Of a stretch of 64,000 bases of DNA, positions 7,227-18,994 are shown in pieces. Every line of letters starts with the position of its first letter. Position 1 is the stretch's first letter. The notes under the pieces were generated by a model that saw only the letters and a list, made by a program, of their open reading frames with translations, was not told where the DNA came from and ran no database searches. This DNA is from Bacillota bacterium. GTDB taxonomy: Bacteria; Bacillota; Clostridia; Christensenellales; CAG-138. The translations under genes were made by a program, and so were the position numbers. The stretch spans positions 1,852 to 65,851 of the forward strand of contig JAEWYO010000036.1 of NCBI GenBank assembly GCA_023395595.1. Direction: 5' to 3'.

Positions 7227-8231
7227 TTAATCAATACTGCCCGTGTTGGCTAGTTCAAGAAACACCTCAACCCAGCCGGGGTCGAATTGCGTTCCCGCGT
7301 TTCGTTTGATTTCATCCACGCATTGTTCAAACGACAGCGCGTCGCGATACGGGCGGCAGGAGCGCATCGCGTCATATGTGTCCGCAATAGCGATCACCCG
7401 TGCGCCGTCGGGAATCTCCTCGCCACCCCGTCCGTCGGGATAACCCTTGCCGTCATATCGCTCGTGATGATGCCGGATAATCGGCCAGATGCGGCTGCCA
7501 GGATCGAGCGGGCGGATGATGTCCGCGGCCAGAGCGCTGTGCTGTTTGATGGATTCATATTCCTCGCTGGTGAGTTTACCCGGCTTTCGCACGATGGAAT
7601 CGGGGATGCAAATCTTCCCGATGTCGTGGAGCTTTGCCGCCCACTGTACATCCAGCAGTCGCTCGTTGATGCCGTTTCGCTCTTCATAGAGCTTGCAAGC
7701 AATTTCGCAAACCCGCTTGCTGTGTCCGTTTGTGTAGAGATCCCGCGCCTCCAGAAGGTTGGAAAGCATCTCCATGCTGGTCATCATCAGGCCGTGATAT
7801 TGTTCCTTGAGCGTGTCGTGTGCAATCTCCTGCGCGCGCTGATAGGCGGCCTTTGCCTCCTCCGCCTTCCTGCGCTCGGTGATGTCCCGCGAGGTGACAG
7901 TCACGCCCTGCAGCGTATGCGCCTCGTCAAACACAGGCGCATAGGTGTTTTCATAATATTTGTCGTTGACAGCATCCGTCACCATGCGGCTGATGGTGTT
8001 GCCTTCGTGCGTCTTGAGATAGCCGAGCGCGCGGTTGACCTTCTCTTTGGAGTCCTCCTTGTGGCAGTCCAGCATGCTGTGCCCAAGCAGGTTTTCGCGC
8101 TTCACATTCCGAATTCTCTCCGCCGCGTCGTTGACGAATACAATCGTACCCTGCGCATCCGAGAGGATGATGCCATCCTGCGTTTGCGACAAAACCAACC
8201 TGTATAGATTGTCCAGCCATTCGTGTTCCAT
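7227..8231 (-). CDS. PAS sensor domain / HD-GYP domain protein (putative c-di-GMP phosphodiesterase)
   Basis: GGAGG lies 7 nt upstream of the ATG. The N-terminal region is PAS-like (GIILSDAQGTIVFVNDAAERI). HD-GYP signatures are present (KLHDIGK; HHHERYDGKGYPDG). Confidence 0.85.
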   Translation of the reverse strand: MEHEWLDNLYRLVLSQTQDGIILSDAQGTIVFVNDAAERIRNVKRENLLGHSMLDCHKEDSKEKVNRALGYLKTHEGNTISRMVTDAVNDKYYENTYAPVFDEAHTLQGVTVTSRDITERRKAEEAKAAYQRAQEIAHDTLKEQYHGLMMTSMEMLSNLLEARDLYTNGHSKRVCEIACKLYEERNGINERLLDVQWAAKLHDIGKICIPDSIVRKPGKLTSEEYESIKQHSALAADIIRPLDPGSRIWPIIRHHHERYDGKGYPDGRGGEEIPDGARVIAIADTYDAMRSCRPYRDALSFEQCVDEIKRNAGTQFDPGWVEVFLELANTGSID

Positions 8232-10947: not shown

Positions 10948-11264
10948 CTGTATATCCTCTCAATTCTGTTGTATTTATCTATTTGGATTGTTTGCCCCAA
11001 TAACAAAAACGGCACGGAAGCTCCATGCCGAACAAATCTCTTTGAAGTTCGTTCAAAAAAGAAGTCCTCTAGCTTGGCGCGTTTCTGTTTGGAAAGCGTA
11101 CATCGAAACAAACGCATCGATTGCGCTTGTGTTGCTTCGAACAATTGTCTCGCGTTCCGTTACAGAACCGACGTCAAACAGACACTTCCCTTCTCTTTCA
11201 AAACTTATATTCCGTGCTGGTTTTGATACTAGCAAACCCTGACGCAAAAATCAAGCTGCCGGAT

Positions 11265-12314
11265 TCAATCGTTCTTGAGCGTTTGCAGCATCTGAAGCGC
11301 AAACGAATCCATCCGCTGCGCAATCCCCTCCGCCTGCATGGCTTCGCCGGGGTGGTTTGCGGTCTGCATCAGGCAAAAACGCGGCGGAAGCGAGAATGTT
11401 TTGTTTAGGCACAGCGCGCCGAGCACCTGCTGTGCGATGATATCGCTGCCGCTGTAGCCGGAGACGATCACGGCGTAAAGCTGCTTTTCGTAGAGCGAGT
11501 TATAGACCAGCACGCTCGTGAGGCGATTGATGAACGCAAGGATATTCGCGCTCACGCTGTCGTTGTAGTTCGGGCAGAGCAGCAAGAGCGCGTCGCACTC
11601 GTTGATCGCGGGAAACACATCGTTGGTGATCACGCCGCCGTAGAAACAGCTGTTTTGCCGCGCAAAGTGCGCACAGGTTTTATAGGAACAACCCCGGCAG
11701 TCGAAAATTGCACCGTTTTGGAGCGAGATTTCGTGGATGTCGCAGTAGGGCGAAATCCGCTCGGACAGCGCCATACCGATTTGCAGTGTGTTGGAGGTTG
11801 TCCGGTCACTCGCGTGCAGCAGCAGCACCTTTGGCCGCGTCTTTTTTACGGGACAAAAATGGATCAGCCGCTGCACCAGTTCGCGCGCGGCCTGGTGGTA
11901 TGCCCCCGTGAGGGAAACGCCGCGCCGGAGGGATTGCACATTCCAATTATCGAGCGAACCCGTCGCCTCCACAAGCGGTTTGCCCGGAAAACGGCAGCCG
12001 GCAAGATTTGCCGCAAGCGCCAGCATATCCGCCGTCTGCTTGGTGTAGAGTTCGCCCGCGCCGTCGAGCAGGATCGCGCCCGTTGCGCCCTCCATCGCCG
12101 CCGGGTTTTGCCTTAACGTCGCAATCAGCGCCATCACGTCCGCGTCCAGACCGTGCTCGCTCAGCCCAACCGCAAAGAGCACGCGGTTTCCCGCAAGGCG
12201 CGGGAGCGCATCCGCGCTCATCACCCGCTCGTGCGCAGCGCCTTCCAGCGCATAGGCGAGGGTTTCGTTCAAACGCGTATTCTCGTTGCAGAGTACGACG
12301 ATGATGTCACTCAT
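11265..12314 (-). CDS. Two-domain flavodoxin-like / NADPH-dependent FMN reductase family protein
   Basis: The start overlaps the upstream stop (ATGA). The C-terminal half (KVLLLHASDRTTSNT..., CRGCSYKTC, DALLLLCPNYNDSVSANILAFINR) resembles the iron-sulfur flavoprotein/FMN reductase fold. The N-terminal ~150 aa are unassigned. Confidence 0.6.
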   Translation of the reverse strand: MSDIIVVLCNENTRLNETLAYALEGAAHERVMSADALPRLAGNRVLFAVGLSEHGLDADVMALIATLRQNPAAMEGATGAILLDGAGELYTKQTADMLALAANLAGCRFPGKPLVEATGSLDNWNVQSLRRGVSLTGAYHQAARELVQRLIHFCPVKKTRPKVLLLHASDRTTSNTLQIGMALSERISPYCDIHEISLQNGAIFDCRGCSYKTCAHFARQNSCFYGGVITNDVFPAINECDALLLLCPNYNDSVSANILAFINRLTSVLVYNSLYEKQLYAVIVSGYSGSDIIAQQVLGALCLNKTFSLPPRFCLMQTANHPGEAMQAEGIAQRMDSFALQMLQTLKND

Positions 12315-13546
12315 CCGATTTGAAATTCCTCCAGTTTTCGGTAGCTCTCCGAAACACGTTGGTAGAGGTCAGGATGCAATTCTTCCCGCCTTTGTTCGGC
12401 GCCGGCCGGGGTCAGCCGCGCACGGCAGCCGAAGTAAGCCCCGCCGAGCGGAACCGCCGCGTCGTGCCATTCCCCGCGCAGCGCACGAAGCACCGAGACA
12501 GCGGCAGACGAAAGCCCCGGCGCAAGATACGGCTTGAATCCGAGCGAACGCACTGTGAGATTCGCCGTCTCCGCCTTGTGTGTGAGTGTGCGCGAGCACG
12601 CCGCATCATACCCTTCGTTTGGCGTGTTTGCGATCACGAGCCCGTTTCCGTGCGGGCCGTAGACGCGCAAGTGCTCCACAGGAACGCCCTCGCGCTCGGC
12701 GGAATAGATCGCGCGCGCGTGCATGACCCCGAGGCCAAAGCCGCGCACCTGCTCCGGCAGCAGCCCGTTTCCGTCGAATTCGCCCGCGTCGTTTTGGTTG
12801 CTCATGAGGAATACCGCGCGGCTGAGTTGATCCACCGGATCGGATATCTGGCAAAACAACCCCGCAAAGCCGCTCTCCCGCGCGGCGCGCGCATAGGCGC
12901 GCAAGAGTTCGCGGTTGGCAGAAAACTGCATCATCCGCACATCCCCGCCGCTCTCCGCGCCGACCTCCGGCACGGCACGCGCGGCGGTAAAGAGCAGTGC
13001 GTCACAGTCAAACAACGCCTCTTCATGCAGTACACGAATGCTCGGGAGCGTGTCCCCATCCCGCACGGGCAAAACCTGATTCAGCTCCGCTTCATAGCGC
13101 AGGCACTGGTTTTCATCGCGGTCATAGATGCCAATCTCGGCCAAATCCGTGCCGAGAAGCTTGAGCCCGATTGCCGTCGTGCCGCCAACGTTGCCGAGGC
13201 CGACGAGATTCACGCGCGGCTTGGTTGTTCCGCGCGCACGAAAGGTGCAGAGCACCGGAAACCAACGAGAAAACGCCGTGTTGGCGACGCTTGCGCCGTG
13301 CTCTTTCACAAACTCCGCGAGCGCATCGTCCTTTGCCACGTTCGGCGGCGGCAGAAGCAGCGCGATACCCTCCGCCTCGTCCAACTCCACCAGAGACGAA
13401 ATTGCAAACAGCCCACGGCTCTTTTGCGGGTCTCGCTCGACCAAAAACACGAGCGGGTCAAATGGCTGCGCAACCGCAACCGCGCCCTCCGGCAGTCTTC
13501 CGCCGTGGTCCGCGAGGCAAAATCCTTCATACGCGTAATACTTCAT
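12311..13546 (-). CDS. Divergent lactate/malate dehydrogenase family protein with an N-terminal extension
   Basis: Rossmann motif VNLVGLGNVGGTTA is present, with an LDH-like DPVD and YGPHGNG (compare GEHGD). ATG 13546 lies 9 nt after a GGAGGA embedded in the end of the upstream gene. Confidence 0.6.
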   Translation of the reverse strand: MKYYAYEGFCLADHGGRLPEGAVAVAQPFDPLVFLVERDPQKSRGLFAISSLVELDEAEGIALLLPPPNVAKDDALAEFVKEHGASVANTAFSRWFPVLCTFRARGTTKPRVNLVGLGNVGGTTAIGLKLLGTDLAEIGIYDRDENQCLRYEAELNQVLPVRDGDTLPSIRVLHEEALFDCDALLFTAARAVPEVGAESGGDVRMMQFSANRELLRAYARAARESGFAGLFCQISDPVDQLSRAVFLMSNQNDAGEFDGNGLLPEQVRGFGLGVMHARAIYSAEREGVPVEHLRVYGPHGNGLVIANTPNEGYDAACSRTLTHKAETANLTVRSLGFKPYLAPGLSSAAVSVLRALRGEWHDAAVPLGGAYFGCRARLTPAGAEQRREELHPDLYQRVSESYRKLEEFQIG

Positions 13547-13548
13547 GT

Positions 13549-16500
13549 TCAAACGTCCTCCGCGTTGGAGATGCGCCGCATCTGCCGAATATCGTCTTTT
13601 AGGAAGGCGGAAGCCACCACGTTGAGGTCATATTGCATATGCGCGCCCTTGTCCGGCAGGCGCGGGCGCACCAGCGCCTCACCCAGCCGCCGGAGCGTGA
13701 GCCCCGTTCCCTGCAGCTTGAGATAGCGATCCTCCAGCACCGAGAGGATGGTTAACGTGTTGCCCAGCGCCACGCGGGAATAATGCCGGACGGCGGGCGG
13801 CGGCGCGCCATGCAGATATTTGGGATATTGATAGGGCAAAATCAGATTGATGCTCGGCGGATAGTCCCGCTCCACAATCCCGCCCGAGACGCTGTCTCCG
13901 CCGATGAAGGGATACAGCAGGCTCTCCGTGAACCAATATCGCATGTTCGGGATAAAGTATTCGCAGTCCACATTGCGCTTTTGTTCGCGCATGAGGTCTA
14001 GCCCCCTGCCGGAGAGAATGCCGACGAGGATGCGCTCCACCTCCACGCCCTGACCGCGAAACAGCGGGTCGAGCTTCTCCCAACGATAACCGTTGTGCAG
14101 CAGATCGTCCACCAGCAGCACGGGACGGCGGAAGGATTTGATCGTCTTGACCTGATTGGAAAGCTGGGAATAACCGGGGGATTCTTCAATGTCAAAGCCG
14201 CTCTCGTTGGCGTGGAACACCTTGTCCGCGTGGAGCGCTTTGGTCACCGTGTTTGGCACGATTGTCTCGGCGAGAATCTTGCCATATGGCACGCACATCG
14301 CACGGCCGAGCGTCTTCTGCGTCGGCGGCACGTTGGAAACGCCGTTGAGCGCACGCACTTTTTCGATGAGCCCGTCGTTGATCGCGTCCATGTCGAAGCT
14401 CAGCAGCAGCGTGCCCGGAAACATCGCGCAGATGGATTTTCGCAGTGCCGGGCGTGTGGATTCCACCGCCGCGCGAACCGCCTCATCCGAGGCAAACGGT
14501 TCCTTGATGCATTGCAGTGTGTCCTCGAGCAGTACCAGCGGCGCGCGCATATCCGCGTAAAGCAGCGCGCTCTCGTCCGGTACGGGCAAGAAGCCGAGTT
14601 GGGACGCAACCTCGCGCTCCGTCTCCTCCGCGCAGCGATAGAGCGCAAAGGTGTGCTCCCGAATCAGTGAGCGTGCCAGCAGATCGCACAGCAGCGCGCG
14701 CAGAGGTTCACCCGTTCCGCTTGTTTCCTCGATCCAGAGAATGCGACCGGATGCCAGCCGGCGCACGGTCTCCGTTGCCCCCCGCAGATCGCCCAGCACA
14801 TCGTAGAGATCCGTCACGCTCACACTCCGGCTACGGATGCGCGCGCGCAGTTCGCCCGCGTCGTCGCGATAGGTTGCGGCGTATTCCTCGCCCGTCTCGC
14901 GCACCTCGCAGCGGCGGGTGGGCAACTCGTTGATCTCCTGCTTGTATTGCGGCATGCGCAGATACAGCCCGCGCGCATAGATAAAATCCTGCACCACGGG
15001 ATCGACCATCATGCCGATGTCCATGTCCTTGTCGATGTATTCGCGAATTTGCGTACTGCTCGCGCTCTCGTAATAGGCAGGAAGCGAGAGCGAGATCACG
15101 CGTCCGCGCAACAAATCCTCCGCGCGGCGGTTTTCGTCCGGCTTAGCCTGCTCCACGCGGGTAAAGAGAATGTGATGATAGGTTGCCGCCGTGCCCGGCC
15201 CGCTCTGGCGATAGGCGCTGGCGTTGAGGATGACGTCGCTGCCCGCAACGAGATACAGTTCCCGGTCGCGGAAGAGTTGGCTGAGGTTTTTGAGATCCTC
15301 CGGCACGGCGAGGTTGACCGGAATATCGTCCGGGAAGAGATAGACGTCCGGCAGGTTGGCGGCTGACATGCTCACAATCTGGCGGCGCATGAGCTTCGCC
15401 AGCGTGCGCTTGCTCCAGGAAAACTCGTCCACCGCAAGGTAAACCTCAAACCCGTGGGCGCGGATTTCCTCGACAATGCGCTTGTGCCCCGCCGAAAACG
15501 GGTCGAACGTGCCGGGGAAGAACGCGACGGGCTTGAGCGGATCAAACGCAAATCCGCCGCCGGTTTCGCAGCGCGTGATGAAGCGATAGAGATGGTTGAG
15601 CATCGCCGCTTCATTGAAAAACGCGAGCATACCGTCCCGCCGCTCGCCAAGCAGCGTGAGCAGTTTTTTGCCAAAGCGCACGAGGCAGGCTCTGCGCGCG
15701 TCCAGCGGGCAGCCCTCATTGCCGAAATACATCCGGCAGATGACCTCCAGCGCGGTGAGACGGATGCTGTCGTCAAAATGTGCGACGCCCGTGAGCAGCA
15801 GGCCAAACACCCGCTCGTAGACCGCGTCCGCGCGGGCGGTGTTGTCCGTCGCATAGCCGGAGAGCACGGCGCAGAGCGTCGAGAGTGCGGCGCGCGCCGC
15901 GCGTGTGTTTGCCGCGCGCAGCAGGTCTTCGAGATAGTCGATTCCCTCGTCCATCTCTTTTTCCGGCACGCTGCAGATCAGCCTGCCCAGATACGGCGGA
16001 ATATAGCCGGAGATTTCATTTTGCCCGGTCTCGAGTTCGCGCAAGAGATCGACCATGATCTCGTTTCGCTGATCGACCGACAGCACGGCGGAGACCTCCA
16101 CCAGTGCCTCACCCGCGCGTTCACGCACGGGCAGATGTTCGCTGACCGAAAGCAGGTTGCTCAAGTGCATCGCGATATGGAACGCTTCCTCGGGATGCAC
16201 GTGTACATAGTCGCAAAGATGGTCGATATGCACAAGCTTCATCGTCCAGGTGATGCTGCTCTTGAGGTTGCTTAAGTAGATTTCGCCGACCGGTAGCGCC
16301 GGTTCTTCCAGTGAGGACAATCCCGCGCGTTTTCTGAGGCGGTTGAATAGCCAGACGGAGGCAAACTCCGCGTCGGGCTGGAGCTTGATGCTCTCACACG
16401 CGTGCAGTAGCAGTTTGGGGTCACCATCCGCCACCGCGCTGAGCGCGCGCAGGGCGCGGATGCGTACCCGCGCCTCCGGGGAAGCGGCGGCCCCGCCGAG

Positions 16501-18210
16501 AATCGGCAGCATGCGCTCCACTTCCGCGCGCTGCATGACCTCCTGCGGAATCTGCGTGAGGGTATCCATCAGTGCGAGCAGGTCTTCCCCGCCGCTGAAG
16601 AACATCCGGCGGTAAATCTTGTCCCAATAGCCGCGCCGCTCCTCCGGCATGCAGCGGGAAAAGAGGCTGCCCGCAATGGTCTTGAGAGAGTTGCTGATGC
16701 GCGTCGCATGTTTTTGCGAAATTTTGTAGTCGGGATGCAGACACAGCTCGATATAATCGTCCCAGAGCGCGATGCTCTCGCTCAGCACCGCGTGCAGCGC
16801 GGGCGCAATGGCGAGCGAACCAGCACCGCGCGGGAGTTCTTTGCGATAGCGCGGGCCGGAGTTGGCGAGGATTGCGCCCATGATTTTCCCCGCGTGGCGG
16901 CGCACATCTCCGTCATGATGCATCAGCAGTTCATACAAAAAGCGCAGGGTAAGCAGCTTATGCGTGCGGGTCATATAGGTGCTGTATTCTTCAAACAGCA
17001 GCAGATACGTGCGGATGCGGCTGAGGTTTTTCTCGTCCCGCGCCTGCTCCAGCAGCGCCTCAAACGTGTCGCTCACCGAAATCGTGTGCATCAGGTGGAT
17101 GTTGTTGCCAAACGCGTGGTTGCACAGCGCGCGGATGACCTCGTCCTGCGAGAGCAGTGCCGCGTCCTTCTTCTCCGCGGGCAGCAGTGCTTCCGCGCTG
17201 GGGTTCGGGTTCACGCCGTAGCTGACCAAGAACCGCTCGAAGTCATCGAGCTTTTTATACACCGTCTCGTAGCGCAGGCGCTTCTCCGGCGTCATGTCCG
17301 CAAGTTTGACAAAGATGCGGTCGCGCGATTCGGTCAGAGGGCTGACGACGGTCTGCTCCTTGCCGTCCGCGCCGCGTTCTGCGCGCACGCGAAAATCGGC
17401 ATAGATCAGGATCAGCGATTCGATCGGTAGATTTTCAAACTCCAAATCCCAGGTGGAGTGGTTCGCCGCGATGTGCGCGATATCCGGCATATTTCGCTCT
17501 TCGAGCCACTTCCAGGTGTAATAATAGTGCAGATACGGGATGCGCGGCATGTCCTCACCGCGGCAGCCAAATTTTCCGATGTCGTGCGCCAGCGCGGCGC
17601 AGGCAGCCAGCGCGGTATCCACGGGCAATCCCGCGAGCTTTGCCTGCCGTGCTGTGTGGCACGCCACATGCCGCACACCGAAGGTATGCCCCGCCGGATC
17701 AAACGGCATGATCTCCTTGCCGATGCGTAGCAGTTCTCGATAGTTGCTCTTCCTCATCGCCTCGGCAAAGAGCACACATTGCTCCCGAACCGGGCTTGCA
17801 TCCAGCTCCTCCTGAGAAACGGGCAGATAGTCCAGCAGCGGATCGAAGGACTGCTCCCGCTCCGCGTCCATCAGGCGGGAGAGCACGGTTAAATAGAGCT
17901 TCAGCGCGCTTTTTTGCCCCTTGTTGGATCGCGGCGCGCCCGAATAAGGGTACAATCCGGCGGAGAGCGCTTCATATGCGTGCGCCAGCACCCCTTCTTC
18001 CGGCATCTCGCCCACGCGGCGAATCAACGGCTCGCACAGCGCGGCAACAGCGGCGCAGGAAACGCGCAAACCTAACATAGCGCAATAGTCCGCGTCAAAC
18101 TTTGTTTTCGCCGTCCACGCACGCAATTGTTTGTTGGTTACGCCCGTGTTTTTCGACAGCTCCGCGTAGAGCGCGTCCAGCGCGCCGTTGTTCGCGGTTC
18201 GCTCGTCCAT
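13549..18210 (-). CDS. 1553-aa multidomain protein: HD domain, long helical region, NadD/cytidylyltransferase-like nucleotidyltransferase, PRT-like C-terminus
   Basis: ATG 18210 is preceded by GGAGG. HD motifs are present (HTFGVRHVA...LAHDIGKF). Nucleotidyltransferase motifs are FPGTFDPFSAGH and SASSTQIREYI. A PRPP-loop-like RPVLLVDDLLHNG is present. I recall no characterised homologue. Confidence 0.8.
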   Translation of the reverse strand: MDERTANNGALDALYAELSKNTGVTNKQLRAWTAKTKFDADYCAMLGLRVSCAAVAALCEPLIRRVGEMPEEGVLAHAYEALSAGLYPYSGAPRSNKGQKSALKLYLTVLSRLMDAEREQSFDPLLDYLPVSQEELDASPVREQCVLFAEAMRKSNYRELLRIGKEIMPFDPAGHTFGVRHVACHTARQAKLAGLPVDTALAACAALAHDIGKFGCRGEDMPRIPYLHYYYTWKWLEERNMPDIAHIAANHSTWDLEFENLPIESLILIYADFRVRAERGADGKEQTVVSPLTESRDRIFVKLADMTPEKRLRYETVYKKLDDFERFLVSYGVNPNPSAEALLPAEKKDAALLSQDEVIRALCNHAFGNNIHLMHTISVSDTFEALLEQARDEKNLSRIRTYLLLFEEYSTYMTRTHKLLTLRFLYELLMHHDGDVRRHAGKIMGAILANSGPRYRKELPRGAGSLAIAPALHAVLSESIALWDDYIELCLHPDYKISQKHATRISNSLKTIAGSLFSRCMPEERRGYWDKIYRRMFFSGGEDLLALMDTLTQIPQEVMQRAEVERMLPILGGAAASPEARVRIRALRALSAVADGDPKLLLHACESIKLQPDAEFASVWLFNRLRKRAGLSSLEEPALPVGEIYLSNLKSSITWTMKLVHIDHLCDYVHVHPEEAFHIAMHLSNLLSVSEHLPVRERAGEALVEVSAVLSVDQRNEIMVDLLRELETGQNEISGYIPPYLGRLICSVPEKEMDEGIDYLEDLLRAANTRAARAALSTLCAVLSGYATDNTARADAVYERVFGLLLTGVAHFDDSIRLTALEVICRMYFGNEGCPLDARRACLVRFGKKLLTLLGERRDGMLAFFNEAAMLNHLYRFITRCETGGGFAFDPLKPVAFFPGTFDPFSAGHKRIVEEIRAHGFEVYLAVDEFSWSKRTLAKLMRRQIVSMSAANLPDVYLFPDDIPVNLAVPEDLKNLSQLFRDRELYLVAGSDVILNASAYRQSGPGTAATYHHILFTRVEQAKPDENRRAEDLLRGRVISLSLPAYYESASSTQIREYIDKDMDIGMMVDPVVQDFIYARGLYLRMPQYKQEINELPTRRCEVRETGEEYAATYRDDAGELRARIRSRSVSVTDLYDVLGDLRGATETVRRLASGRILWIEETSGTGEPLRALLCDLLARSLIREHTFALYRCAEETEREVASQLGFLPVPDESALLYADMRAPLVLLEDTLQCIKEPFASDEAVRAAVESTRPALRKSICAMFPGTLLLSFDMDAINDGLIEKVRALNGVSNVPPTQKTLGRAMCVPYGKILAETIVPNTVTKALHADKVFHANESGFDIEESPGYSQLSNQVKTIKSFRRPVLLVDDLLHNGYRWEKLDPLFRGQGVEVERILVGILSGRGLDLMREQKRNVDCEYFIPNMRYWFTESLLYPFIGGDSVSGGIVERDYPPSINLILPYQYPKYLHGAPPPAVRHYSRVALGNTLTILSVLEDRYLKLQGTGLTLRRLGEALVRPRLPDKGAHMQYDLNVVASAFLKDDIRQMRRISNAEDV

Positions 18211-18459
18211 AGCCAAATCCTCCGTCCAGTGAAACAATCTTCTTGCGGATTCTTGTGTCTCACTGGTTCTTTGATTGTATCTCTGTATTGCGATTGTATA
18301 GATAGGAAGCAATCTTGAAAAATTTTCTGATACCTTTATTTTAATCAGATTTCGTTCGCCTGTCGAGCGAAAAGAGAGAATATTGTGCGCGTGCCGCACC
18401 CCCGCTCAGCAAAAAAGTGCATTGTCACAACGTGTTTGCATTCGCTGTGTTTCGCCCAC

Positions 18460-18507
18460 TTGACAAAAACGCGAATCGGTGTAAACATATGAGAGTAATT
18501 CTCATAT
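18460..18507 (+). promoter_or_regulatory. Putative promoter (TTGACA) and Fur-family (Zur) operator palindrome
   Basis: TTGACA lies at 18460-18465. The AT-rich inverted repeat ATATGAGA-gtaat-TCTCATAT at 18487-18507 sits over the expected -10/start region upstream of zur. Confidence 0.45.
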
Positions 18508-18574: not shown

Positions 18575-18994
18575 TTGGCGGAATACGAAACAAAACAACG
18601 GCGGATTCTGCTGGACTATCTCAAGGCACATCCCGACCGGGGTTTTTCGGTGGAAGAGCTTTACGATGGGCTTTGTACCGAACACGCGGCGGACATTGTG
18701 CCCGGCAAAAGCACGCTCTATCGGCTGATTGCGCGGCTGGTGTCCGAAGGCCTCGTCAAGCGCTTTGCCGCGGGTCAGGGTAGACAGTTTGCCTATCAAA
18801 TCGTTGCGTGCGATGCGTGTGACGCGCACCTGCACCTCAAATGCACCACATGCGGCAGCCTCTATCACATGGATCACGCGGTGAGCGAGCAAATCATGCG
18901 AGAGGTGCTCAGCAGAAGCGATTTTTCGCTGGACGAAAAAGAGACCGTGCTATTTGGCGTGTGTAAGGGCTGCAAGCTCCGGCAAAGGAAATGA
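18575..18994 (+). CDS. zur: Fur family transcriptional repressor, probably Zur
   Basis: TTG start 8 nt after AGGAGG. It has a winged-helix N-terminus (RRILLDYLKAHP) and two CxxC pairs (CDAC...; CTTCG...CKGC). It is the first gene of a zinc ABC transporter operon. Confidence 0.7.
   Translation: MAEYETKQRRILLDYLKAHPDRGFSVEELYDGLCTEHAADIVPGKSTLYRLIARLVSEGLVKRFAAGQGRQFAYQIVACDACDAHLHLKCTTCGSLYHMDHAVSEQIMREVLSRSDFSLDEKETVLFGVCKGCKLRQRK

Follow-up and report, generated by a model that had tools for sequence, protein, structure and literature searches.

What does a three-gene unit do when its first gene encodes a single 1553-aa polypeptide of five parts, followed by a dehydrogenase-like and a flavoprotein-like gene? 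We addressed this question in the window, i.e., the whole stretch of 64,000 nucleotides analysed here. The three genes, named A, B, and C, lie on the minus strand together with their candidate signals:

18338..18366, minus strand: promoter-like site TCGACA-17-TAAAAT, ~130 nt upstream of gene A (consensus scan, 10/12 matches; a pattern match only)
18220..18224, minus strand: ribosome-binding site GGAGG of gene A, 9 nt before ATG 18210 (read from the sequence)
13549..18210, minus strand: gene A, 1553-aa HD / HEAT / NadD-like / GNAT-like / PRT-like fusion (ORF, homologues, conservation)
17176..18210, minus strand: N-terminal helical region and HD domain, A aa 1-345 (Pfam HD)
17395-17691, minus strand: Pfam HD match, A aa 174-272 (E 2.9e-5)
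15556..17163, minus strand: HEAT/ARM alpha-solenoid, A aa 350-885, ~535 aa (AF2 and Foldseek)
14950..15534, minus strand: NadD/NMNAT-like (HIGH-type) nucleotidyltransferase (NTase), A aa 893-1087 (Pfam, NCBIfam, profile against PDB)
14347..14910, minus strand: GNAT-like fold, A aa ~1101-1288 (AF2 and Foldseek)
13552..14313, minus strand: type I phosphoribosyltransferase (PRT)-like fold, A aa ~1300-1553, with PRPP-loop-like motif VLLVDDLLHNGYR (Foldseek, conservation)
12311..13546, minus strand: gene B, LDH/MDH-like NAD-binding dehydrogenase, 411 aa from ATG 13546 (profile against PDB)
11265..12314, minus strand: gene C, 349 aa, with an FMN-reductase/iron-sulfur-flavoprotein-like C-terminal part (Pfam FMN_red)
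11379-11834, minus strand: FMN_red domain, C aa 161-312 (Pfam FMN_red, E 1.9e-13)
11646-11699, minus strand: four-Cys motif, C aa 206-223 (invariant cysteines)
11010..11030, minus strand: intrinsic-terminator-like hairpin, 9 pairs then TTTTTGTTAT, 235 nt past gene C (pattern scan)

The ORF of gene A spans 18399..13549 on the minus strand, and ATG 18210 gives the 1553-aa product. The GGAGGA ribosome-binding site of gene B (13554-13559) is located within the 3' end of gene A, and ATG 13546, 8 nt after it, is the most likely start of gene B, rather than the TTG 13552 given by the ORF lister. The ATG of gene C (12314) overlaps the TGA of gene B as ATGA. A, B, and C are translationally coupled, with stop/start codon overlaps found in the window and in distant clades, and the terminator-like hairpin is probably the end of their transcript. 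The sequence features listed in a preliminary description of this DNA were all present at the positions it gave.

A fusion of separate genes by misassembly or frameshift is refuted as an explanation of gene A, and we consider it next to impossible: homologues of 1500-1640 aa are found in thousands of independent assemblies, complete genomes included, and both AF2 models are confident (pLDDT 88-89). Since at least 2792 homologues of this length cover 96-100% of the query, gene A is neither a chance ORF nor a frameshift artefact. Column identity averages 60% in 31 sequences, and each domain contains invariant residues. No variation was seen at the HD, (S)xGH/SSTxIR, or DD positions in 31 orthologues at 49-90% identity. 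Across clades, the NTase and PRT-like domains retain 35-49% identity, compared with 17-25% for the HEAT and GNAT-like parts. The five-part architecture first proposed was upheld, and its two unnamed parts could be assigned with AF2 and Foldseek: the helical part rich in Leu and Ala folds as a HEAT/ARM solenoid, and the middle segment has a GNAT-like fold.

At least 575 species-level genomes carry gene A. They belong to Christensenellales, Oscillospirales, Lachnospirales, Peptostreptococcales, and Tissierellia, and the family of gene A is confined to part of Clostridia. A, B, and C are adjacent and in the same order in 66 of the 71 loci with enough downstream DNA, across orders, while the flanking genes vary; in five loci that carry gene A, neither B nor C lies within 6-8 kb. 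Orthologues of B and C are also linked to HD-less forms of A in two further distant clades, and in one HD-less clade the partner of A is a PPDK_N/PEP-synthase-like ATP-grasp protein. A-B-C is a real, widely conserved operon of gut Clostridia, chromosomal and vertically inherited. No riboswitch match was found for the operon.

In the N-terminal half of gene A, Pfam HD was found in 23 of 31 family members. The motifs HTFGVRHVA (aa 175-183) and LAHDIGKF (aa 207-214) contribute to a six-ligand H..HD..H..H..D pattern with invariant H175, H209-D210, H228, H251, and D272. Among PDB sequences, HD-GYP protein 4mcw comes nearest (E 5e-3, first half only). The solenoid is all-helical in the AF2 model (pLDDT 88) and matched designed ARM proteins, karyopherins, and CAND1 in Foldseek (E 2e-7 to 1e-5), with weak Pfam HEAT matches in 13 of 31 members. 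It contains an invariant flexible loop, SGPRYRKELP (aa 451-460), present in the HD-containing clade.

For the NTase domain, Pfam CTP_transf_like matched A aa 897-1057 (E 5.5e-7) and was found in all 31 members. The motifs FPGTFDPFSAGH (aa 898-909) and SASSTQIREYI (aa 1049-1059) hold the invariant residues G900, F902-D903-P904, G908-H909, S1051-S1052, and I1055-R1056. Like NadD/NMNAT enzymes (PF01467, TIGR00482), the domain has (S/T/H)xGH, SSTxIR, and the C-terminal '..YI...GLY' helix; A aa 895-1086 correspond to positions 8-199 of 201 in the NadD model and to residues 4-202 of the NaMN adenylyltransferase 5llt, with which its profile aligns end to end (E 7e-6). In contrast to these enzymes, it sits inside a 1553-aa protein, and the NCBIfam NadD models span the whole domain at 35 bits, far below their cut-offs of 112-150. 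What we take to be the NaMN-phosphate motif of B. subtilis NadD, PxxxPPHK, is replaced by DEFSWSK. SxGH and SSTxIR show no variation across the large HD-containing clade. Several HD-less relatives have Asp in place of the His and a degenerate SSTxIR, with the PRT-like site intact. Because of this degeneration in part of the HD-less clade, adenylylation would not be universal to the family.

Two known protein types share part of this architecture. NadD-YqeK fusions (PRK07152; adenylyltransferase plus HD-domain Ap4A hydrolase) also carry HIGH-type NadD-like and HD domains in one polypeptide. However, in gene A their order is reversed, 550 aa of HEAT repeats separate them, the HD domain is nearest (weakly) to HD-GYP 4mcw, and GNAT-like and PRT-like domains are added; PRK07152 matches gene A weakly and only via its NadD half. 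Citrate lyase ligase CitC likewise combines GNAT and HIGH-type nucleotidyltransferase folds, but in the opposite order, while the NTase of gene A is NadD-like; the Pfam Citrate_ly_lig model had no match in gene A.

The GNAT-like and PRT-like region was modelled by AF2 with pLDDT 89 and pTM 0.90. The GNAT-like part shares its fold (Foldseek E ~1e-3) with GNAT acyltransferases, namely polyamine/agmatine N-acetyltransferases and FeeM, and with the C-terminal GNAT-like regulatory domain of M. tuberculosis isocitrate lyase 2 (ICL2). It differs from the acyltransferases in that the loop binding the CoA pyrophosphate in GNATs is variable and unconserved, and Pfam GNAT had no match in gene A or the family members scanned.

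At the C-terminus, the preliminary description had noted a PRT-like segment with a PRPP-loop-like motif (RPVLLVDDLLHNG, aa 1362-1374). This segment has a type I PRT fold and an invariant DD pair, the 5'-phosphate loop is altered, and the Pfam PRT model had no match in gene A, matching only two distant relatives, weakly (E 1e-3). Foldseek matches were XPRT, APRT, UPRT, and OPRT (PF00156; E 4e-5 to 1e-3, probability 1.0, target-normalised TM 0.45-0.5), ppGpp-bound XPRT 6w1i being among the best, and the fold is also that of PurR/PyrR. As in type I PRTs, an acidic DD pair lies in a hydrophobic beta-strand, with a glycine loop upstream at PRT-like spacing: 60 residues separate the PPi-loop-like CVPYG from the DD pair, a spacing like that of E. 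coli APRT. Unlike them, gene A reads HNGYR where catalytic PRTs have TGGT, an altered loop that is invariant and takes the form (H/x)(N/K)G(Y/F/H)R in the family, and there is an extra invariant motif, CEYFIPN..YW.TES.LYPF.GGDS. CVPYG (1306-1310), D1368-D1369, H1372, R1376, and G1437-G1438-D1439 (GGD) are invariant. DD, CVPYG, and GGD are kept in relatives at 25-32% identity, and this is the most uniformly conserved domain of gene A across clades.

By profile comparison with the PDB, gene B is a member of the LDH/MDH family (L-LDH and MDH, E 1e-7) and aligns over its full length with MDH 2x0i and LDH 6h9s. Its Rossmann domain begins at ~aa 111, which bears out the ~110-aa N-terminal extension noticed earlier; the extension is poorly conserved in the window's clade and absent in Tissierellia. 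The GxGxxG region, R206, D238-P-V-D241, M277, R280, and H301 are invariant. As in L-lactate/malate dehydrogenases (PF00056/PF02866), there are equivalents of Arg109, Arg171, and His195, as well as GxGxxG and an acidic residue after beta-2. However, an invariant Met occupies the Asp168 position of LDH, deletions are present around the Thr246 helix and after His195 together with an 11-aa insertion, and scores fall far under the NCBIfam LDH and MDH cut-offs.

Gene C had been described as a two-domain flavodoxin/FMN-reductase-like protein. This was right for the C-terminal half, which carries the FMN_red phosphate loop, but the N-terminal 158 aa matched nothing: they had no detectable relatives and no similarity to the C-terminal half (hhalign probability 0.5%). 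No PDB sequence relative of gene C was found below E 0.1. The invariant residues are H167, S174, N175, and the cysteines C206-x2-C209-x4-C214-x8-C223. The FMN_red domain and the compact four-Cys motif resemble iron-sulfur flavoproteins (Isf) of the NADPH-dependent FMN reductase family (PF03358), the motif lying ~45 residues into the domain, presumably where Isf binds its [4Fe-4S] cluster. Gene C differs from Isf in its C-x2-C-x4-C-x8-C spacing and its extra 158-aa N-terminal domain.

NCBIfam has no family model for gene A, the PDB holds no relative beyond single domains, and the full-text literature search returned nothing on the system. Source names were only 'cytidyltransferase-related domain protein' or 'hypothetical', and JGI labels some members 'nicotinic acid mononucleotide adenylyltransferase'. 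These results are in line with the earlier statement that the architecture is not known from any characterised protein: it appears undescribed, and nobody seems to have studied the operon.

Our leading reading, a plausible one, is that the operon would serve to make, salvage, or turn over a modified nucleotide, of the pyridine type or another, with redox partners involved. By analogy with the related enzymes, we infer a substrate, a series of catalytic steps, and a complex, and tentatively suggest that A-B-C could form a multienzyme complex in which a base is first phosphoribosylated and then adenylylated, so that a NAD-like nucleotide is made and/or turned over. The PRT-like domain would convert a base, likely a carboxylated heterocycle, and PRPP to a ribonucleoside 5'-monophosphate, and the adjacent NadD-like domain would join this mononucleotide with ATP into a dinucleotide, in parallel to nicotinate -> NaMN -> NaAD. 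The HD domain, with its dinuclear-type ligand set, might act on the product or a by-product by hydrolysing a phosphoester or pyrophosphate in it, and the GNAT-like domain and HEAT solenoid may bind ligands and hold the partners together. B, as a putative NAD(H)-dependent LDH-like dehydrogenase that keeps the carboxylate-binding Arg and catalytic His, and C, as a candidate FMN/[4Fe-4S] flavoprotein, would act on the base or product in a coupled redox step.

This route is supported by the end-to-end alignment of the NTase with NaMN/NMN adenylyltransferases and its retained motifs, by the type I PRT fold with CVPYG and DD, and by these two being the best-conserved domains across clades. The conserved HD ligand set, Arg/His residues of B, and cysteines of C also argue for it, as do the breadth of full-length homologues, the A-B-C order kept where flanks differ, the overlapping codons, the linkage of B and C to HD-less forms of A, the housekeeping context, and the lack of PADLOC or viral-contig matches. 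Against it are HNGYR in place of TGGT and no Pfam PRT match, the low NadD scores and the DEFSWSK motif, the unconserved CoA-pyrophosphate loop, the Met for Asp168, the five loci without B or C, and the ATP-grasp partner of one HD-less clade, which it does not explain. Moreover, the NTase motif decay in HD-less relatives means that adenylylation could not be the universal core.

The main rival, which we hold to be rather unlikely, is a metabolite-sensing regulator. The PRT-like domain (as in PurR/PyrR), the GNAT-like domain (like the ICL2 domain that binds acetyl-CoA), and, in certain clades, the NTase would sense PRPP, (p)ppGpp, acyl-CoA, or ATP, and the HEAT scaffold carrying them would control the B-C redox pair, the HD hydrolase, or both. 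In a variant, the NTase and HD domains would work against each other, one making and the other erasing a dinucleotide signal (e.g., Ap4A-like), with redox state, as read via B (NAD/NADH) and C (ferredoxin/flavin), as the gate. SpoT/Rel and GlnD follow such a logic, pairing a synthetase with an HD hydrolase in one protein. A sensor would also fit the non-canonical yet invariant 5'-phosphate loop, the match to ppGpp-bound XPRT, the ICL2 match with its unconserved CoA loop, the retention of the NTase domain where its motifs decay, the absence of an Asp168 equivalent in B, and HEAT solenoids being typical interaction scaffolds. However, invariance of DD, CVPYG, and GGD down to 25% identity exceeds the usual need of sensor PRT-like domains, the NTase catalytic motifs are invariant across the large HD-containing clade, and gene B keeps its catalytic His and both Arg. 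Pfam and NCBIfam scans found no DNA-binding or other output domain in gene A.

Compared with the nucleotide route, an ordinary NAD salvage pathway in fused form seems improbable. Here the PRT-like domain would be a nicotinate/nicotinamide PRT, the NTase the cell's NaMN/NMN adenylyltransferase, and B and C mere NAD(H)-using neighbours. Among known families, NadD/NMNAT do match the NTase best, the JGI label says the same, and NadD fused to an HD protein is known from NadD-YqeK, although PRK07152 matches gene A weakly. Yet NadD equivalog scores reach at most a quarter of the cut-offs, and known nicotinate and nicotinamide PRTs are type II, whereas the fold here is type I. The family is restricted to part of Clostridia while nadD is near-universal, and the motif loss in some clades would be intolerable for an essential NadD. 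An anti-phage or conflict system that manipulates nucleotides or NAD is a very improbable reading, for which large defence proteins with several domains, HD, PRTase, or NTase modules among them, would be the model. Large conflict proteins combining HD, PRTase, and GNAT modules are described in the literature. PADLOC models matched none of A, B, and C, and no relative was found in 2.9 million viral contigs. Gene A is very highly conserved along its whole length, unlike fast-evolving defence genes, its identity drops step by step, from 92% to 37%, as taxonomic distance grows, and, among the matches listed, nearly all loci are one per genome. The operon neighbours are housekeeping genes (zur-znuABC, DegV, rsmD-coaD, and recG), and in Tissierellia the operon follows rsmD-coaD.

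The three genes lie on the minus strand of the window. Gene A encodes a 1553-aa fusion of HD, HEAT, NadD-like, GNAT-like and phosphoribosyltransferase (PRT)-like domains, gene B a protein of the LDH/MDH type, and gene C a protein resembling the iron-sulfur flavoproteins (Isf).

Features of the A-B-C region
18366-18338, minus strand: sigma-70-like promoter pattern upstream of A
18399-13549, minus strand: open reading frame of gene A; start ATG at 18210, 9 nt after GGAGG; 1553 codons
16786-16860, within gene A (aa 451-475): invariant insertion into the HEAT region, a loop made of SGPRYRKELP and the residues after it
13546, minus strand: start ATG of gene B, 8 nt after GGAGGA; 411 aa
12314, minus strand: start ATG of gene C, overlapping the TGA of B as ATGA
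11030-11010, minus strand: strong terminator-like hairpin 3' of C

The promoter pattern and the hairpin frame a single A-B-C transcription unit. The preliminary description had placed the start of the 1553-codon gene at ATG 18210 after GGAGG and had noted the ATGA overlap between B and C; both were confirmed, and every peptide motif that it quoted for A was found in the sequence. For gene B, an alternative TTG start at 13552 from the ORF lister overlaps the stop codon of A, and ATG 13546 is the more likely start.

Gene A belongs to a widespread family, and its full-length homologues exclude the reading of this giant gene as an assembly or frameshift artefact, to which we give a negligible probability. 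A protein search retrieved at least 2792 homologues, counted as clusters at 90% identity; the best 120 have lengths of 1502-1637 aa, query coverage of 96-100% and identity of 49-92%. Conservation is very high over all 1553 residues: the mean column identity in an alignment of 31 members is 60%, and every segment contains invariant residues. With one genome scanned for each species, relatives turned up in at least 575 genomes. When the GNAT-PRT module was searched with HMMER against 1.84 billion representatives, nearly all of the matches (490 clusters at 50% identity) belonged to the A family and almost none lay outside it; the shorter ones were fragments or variants without the HD domain, and the largest single clusters of the family held up to 929 metagenomic sequences. 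The carriers belong to Christensenellales, Oscillospirales, Lachnospirales, Anaerovoracaceae, and Tissierellia, many of them from human and animal guts. Both MAGs and isolates are represented, with labels including Christensenellaceae, Blautia, Anaerotignum, Tyzzerella, Anaerovorax, and Hominibacterium, and among the Oscillospiraceae Faecousia, Avoscillospira, Oscillibacter, and Dysosmobacter.

The proposed linkage of the three genes holds at most loci. From 80 loci fetched, 71 had sufficient downstream DNA, and B directly follows A in 66 of them, with C after B. In a few loci, lineage-specific small membrane proteins are inserted at the A/B or the B/C junction, and A stands alone, without B or C, at five loci. 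The identities of A, B, and C drop in parallel across loci, from 92% to 37%. Among the ORFs within about 10 kb on each side, no other neighbor recurs. A-B-C is a translationally coupled operon that has been vertically inherited.

In the N-terminal half of A, the HD phosphohydrolase signature is backed by a Pfam HD match at aa 174-272 (24.8 bits, cut-off 22) and by a complete set of invariant metal ligands: H175, H209-D210, H228, H251, and D272. This six-ligand pattern is that of dinuclear HD enzymes such as PhnZ, MIOX, and YqeK. Among solved sequences the HD-GYP protein 4mcw comes closest, but the match is weak (E 5e-3) and covers the first half only, and A contains no GYP of the HHExxDGxGYP motif of HD-GYP phosphodiesterases. 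An AlphaFold2 model of aa 1-890 is all-helical (pLDDT 88, pTM 0.85) and resembles ARM/HEAT solenoids (Foldseek E 2e-7 to 1e-5). Thus, the Leu/Ala-rich helical part, which the preliminary description could not assign, can now be placed as a HEAT/ARM solenoid. All 50 Foldseek matches listed for this model were HEAT/ARM proteins and none was an HD fold, so the HD subtype is read from the amino acid sequence. The invariant loop at aa 451-475 is the sole internal low-confidence stretch of the model. Among the aligned relatives it occurs only in proteins that retain the HD-bearing N-terminal region, and one relative (P0253) has a similar insert; the loop may be a mobile element serving the HD site.

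The nucleotidyltransferase (NTase) core, matched by Pfam CTP_transf_like at aa 897-1057, carries both expected NadD-type signatures, and both are invariant in the HD-containing clade. In PGTFDPFSAGH (aa 899-909), all 31 sequences have G908 and H909; the (H/T)xGH motif of NadD/NMNAT is kept, but with Ser at the first position instead of His or Thr. SASSTQIR matches ISSTxIR, with S1051, S1052, I1055, and R1056 invariant. In six distant relatives these motifs are degenerate, the His being replaced by Asp and SSTxIR decayed. The NCBIfam NadD models span the whole domain with scores far under their equivalog cut-offs (NF000840, 35.1 bits vs. 150; TIGR00482, 30.6 vs. 112), which makes it a divergent relative of NadD and not an orthologue. 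Its profile aligns end to end with the NaMN adenylyltransferase 5llt (E 7e-6) and also with the C-terminal half of human NMNAT1, pointing to an NadD/NMNAT-like rather than a PPAT-like or TagD-like domain. A motif regex found no canonical nadD within the 64-kb window, which is too small to be informative on this point.

The C-terminal part (aa 1088-1553) was modeled as two folds with pLDDT 89 and pTM 0.90. The first, corresponding to the previously unassigned middle segment, is predicted with moderate confidence to be GNAT-like: its Foldseek matches (5k9n, 7ciu, 2g0b, and 6ee1; E 7.5e-4 to 1.5e-3) are polyamine and agmatine N-acetyltransferases, FeeM and the regulatory domain of M. tuberculosis ICL2 (E about 1e-3). 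The acyl-CoA pyrophosphate loop (Q/R)xxGx(G/A) is not conserved in it, the loop before the helix being variable in length and sequence. The second fold matches type I PRTs (XPRT, APRT, UPRT, and OPRT; E 4e-5 to 1e-3, Foldseek probability 1.0), and this predicted fold lends structural support to the PRPP-like loop that had been suspected from the sequence. A PRPP loop consists of four hydrophobic and two acidic residues and then xxTGxT. VLLVDD is present and invariant; catalytic PRTs have TGGT, whereas A keeps the acidic DD pair and has HNGYR in place of the phosphate-binding TGxT. Pfam PF00156 matches neither A nor any of the 31 members, and reaches 18.7-18.9 bits (E 1e-3; gathering score 26.3) in two distant relatives. 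The PRT-like motifs CVP(Y/F)GK, LVDD..KG.R, and YPF.GGD are kept in nearly all relatives examined.

For gene B, a profile of 27 orthologues matched L-LDH and MDH structures at E 1e-7, with two full-length alignments, in agreement with the family first suggested for it. In GLGNVGG (aa 118-124, the GxGxxG motif), G120, V122, and G123 are invariant, as are R206, R280, H301, and M277. With a Geobacillus LDH sequence as reference, R206, R280, and H301 presumably correspond to Arg109, Arg171, and His195, and Met277 presumably occupies the Asp168 position. The N-terminal extension of about 110 aa is poorly conserved and is lacking in the Tissierellia orthologues (311-319 aa).

Gene C had been described as a protein with two flavodoxin-like domains and a Cys patch. 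The C-terminal half stands, with PF03358 FMN_red at aa 161-312 (50.7 bits, cut-off 24) and four invariant cysteines (206, 209, 214, and 223; spacing x2, x4, x8). The N-terminal half does not: residues 1-158 gave no match and do not resemble the C-terminal half, and an internal duplication was rejected since hhalign gave a probability of 0.5%, so two flavodoxin-like domains lack sequence support. The FMN_red domain and the four cysteines, a putative [4Fe-4S] motif, make C resemble Isf, although the spacing differs from that of Isf.

Some members of the A family lack the HD domain; these are shorter proteins that begin with Met. We examined the genomic context of two such clades.

Conserved neighbors in the clades without the HD domain
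L082 7365-9989, L083 6106-8748, L085 866-3418: PPDK_N-like partner upstream of A (first clade)
L088 8446-9963, L089 7750-9268: rsmD, coaD, and coiled-coil protein region (Tissierellia)

In the first clade, the A homologue has 1226-1322 aa, and a single long contig shows B and C orthologues 5 kb upstream, 44-52% identical to their counterparts at HD-type loci. In the Tissierellia clade, A has about 1075 aa, and the order A-B-C is the same with overlapping genes. This linkage indicates that the trio predates the HD fusion. The core that is conserved in A comprises the NTase, GNAT-like, and PRT-like domains together with the latter half of the HEAT region, and conservation across clades is highest in the NTase and PRT-like domains.

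A PPDK_N/PEP-synthase-like ATP-grasp protein of 850-880 aa always precedes A in the first clade, with a 4-nt overlap. Its PPDK_N domain (E 4e-43) is kin to PEP synthase, rifampicin phosphotransferase, and PigC, and it has further N- and C-terminal regions beyond the ATP-grasp domain. It shows no homology to A, and a single weak relative lies near an HD-type A (L078). A true PPDK was rejected as an operon partner: it adjoins A in one locus only (L081) and is treated as a coincidence because tblastn finds none in the other loci. The Tissierellia operon lies directly downstream of rsmD, coaD (phosphopantetheine adenylyltransferase) and a gene for a 161-aa coiled-coil protein, in a conserved housekeeping cluster with pknB, rsgA, rpe, thiamine pyrophosphokinase, rpmB, fakA, and recG.

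At the functional level, the A family is widespread in gut Clostridia, strongly conserved, entirely uncharacterised and nameless, and the parts of A-B-C all point to nucleotide or NAD-type chemistry coupled with redox proteins. The folds and the residues of active-site type are kept for an HD hydrolase, a NadD-like, a PRT-like, an LDH-like and an Fe-S flavoprotein-like component. We tentatively favor a dinucleotide route, without holding it as probable. The PRT-like domain would convert PRPP and a base into a mononucleotide, which the neighboring NadD-like domain would adenylylate, following the logic from nicotinate to NaMN and NaAD. The HD domain would hydrolyse the product or a by-product, B and C would act in redox chemistry on either the base or the product, and the HEAT and GNAT-like parts would serve as scaffold and for ligand binding. 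Our own analogy for B/C and the PRT is orotate PRT acting after NAD-linked dihydroorotate dehydrogenase. If true, this would be a new dinucleotide assembly, in which one protein joins a type I PRT to the NadD-like enzyme that it supplies, and gut anaerobes that are abundant could turn out to have a new cofactor or signal. The bolder version, in which anaerobic gut Clostridia make a NAD-like dinucleotide cofactor or signal new to science, seems doubtful to us. A non-canonical type I PRT would then put a base other than nicotinate on ribose 5-phosphate, the NadD-like domain would transfer an adenylyl group to the product, and the HD domain would degrade the dinucleotide; oxidation or reduction of the base moiety would fall to a dedicated NAD-dependent dehydrogenase and the Fe-S flavoprotein.

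The main rival to the dinucleotide route, which we consider somewhat unlikely, is a role as sensor or regulator, with metabolites bound by the PRT-like and GNAT-like domains and sometimes by the NTase domain. Four features speak for it: the phosphate loop of the PRT-like domain is non-canonical, the CoA loop of the GNAT-like domain is variable, NTase motifs decay in some clades, and B has Met at the Asp168 position. If this reading holds, bacteria would have a metabolic sensor of a new type, built on a HEAT scaffold. Ordinary NAD salvage would suit a NadD-type domain and is improbable for one so far below the NadD cut-offs. A defence system was rejected as very improbable on two results: PADLOC models matched none of A, B, and C at E up to 0.1, and no relative was found among viral contigs.

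The claim that the architecture has no characterised counterpart is consistent with our searches, which found no curated family model for A, no solved structure akin to it beyond single domains and nothing relevant to A-B-C in the full-text literature. The source names of A are 'cytidyltransferase-related domain protein', 'hypothetical protein' and the automatic 'nicotinic acid mononucleotide adenylyltransferase'. Both the architecture of A and the A-B-C operon appear to be undescribed. Since known superfamilies account for all of the domains and NadD-HD fusions exist, we do not rate the system as categorically new.

Regulatory elements were searched around A. A riboswitch or other RNA element upstream of A was discarded, as Rfam gave no family anywhere in the window at gathering thresholds. 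The upstream regions of 78 loci shared only AT-rich low-complexity 9-mers, in at most 7 loci each, and no Rex-like box was found in the window by eye.

Neighboring features in the window
18487-18507: perfect 8-nt inverted repeat, ATATGAGA-N5-TCTCATAT
18575-18994, plus strand: Fur-family regulator gene, followed by ZnuA, ZnuC, and ZnuB genes
7227-8231, minus strand: PAS and HD-GYP-type signaling protein (Pfam HD_5, E 6e-37), 3 kb downstream of the operon

The repeat lies about 70 nt upstream of the Fur-family gene, within the 365-nt divergent intergenic region shared with A, and is probably a Zur operator; a tie to A is unlikely because the flanks differ in other genomes. Between the operon and the PAS/HD-GYP gene are genes for DegV, DUF1836, and a class I methyltransferase, and none of these four genes is conserved beside A elsewhere.

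Long antisense ORFs (12320-13726 on the plus strand and others, up to 468 aa) overlie genes A and B. They lie in a GC-rich stretch (62% G+C) and are taken to be by-products of base composition and not genes, able to mislead naive longest-ORF gene calling. Finally, the 'chromosome' of a Christensenellaceae MAG (OY762290.1) carries the whole A-B-C region twice with homologous flanks, at 8.6-29 kb (L001) and at 3.58-3.60 Mb (L004). The two copies share about 80% identity at the DNA level and 89% in protein A, and stem either from segmental duplication on a large scale or from the merging of two strains in the assembly.
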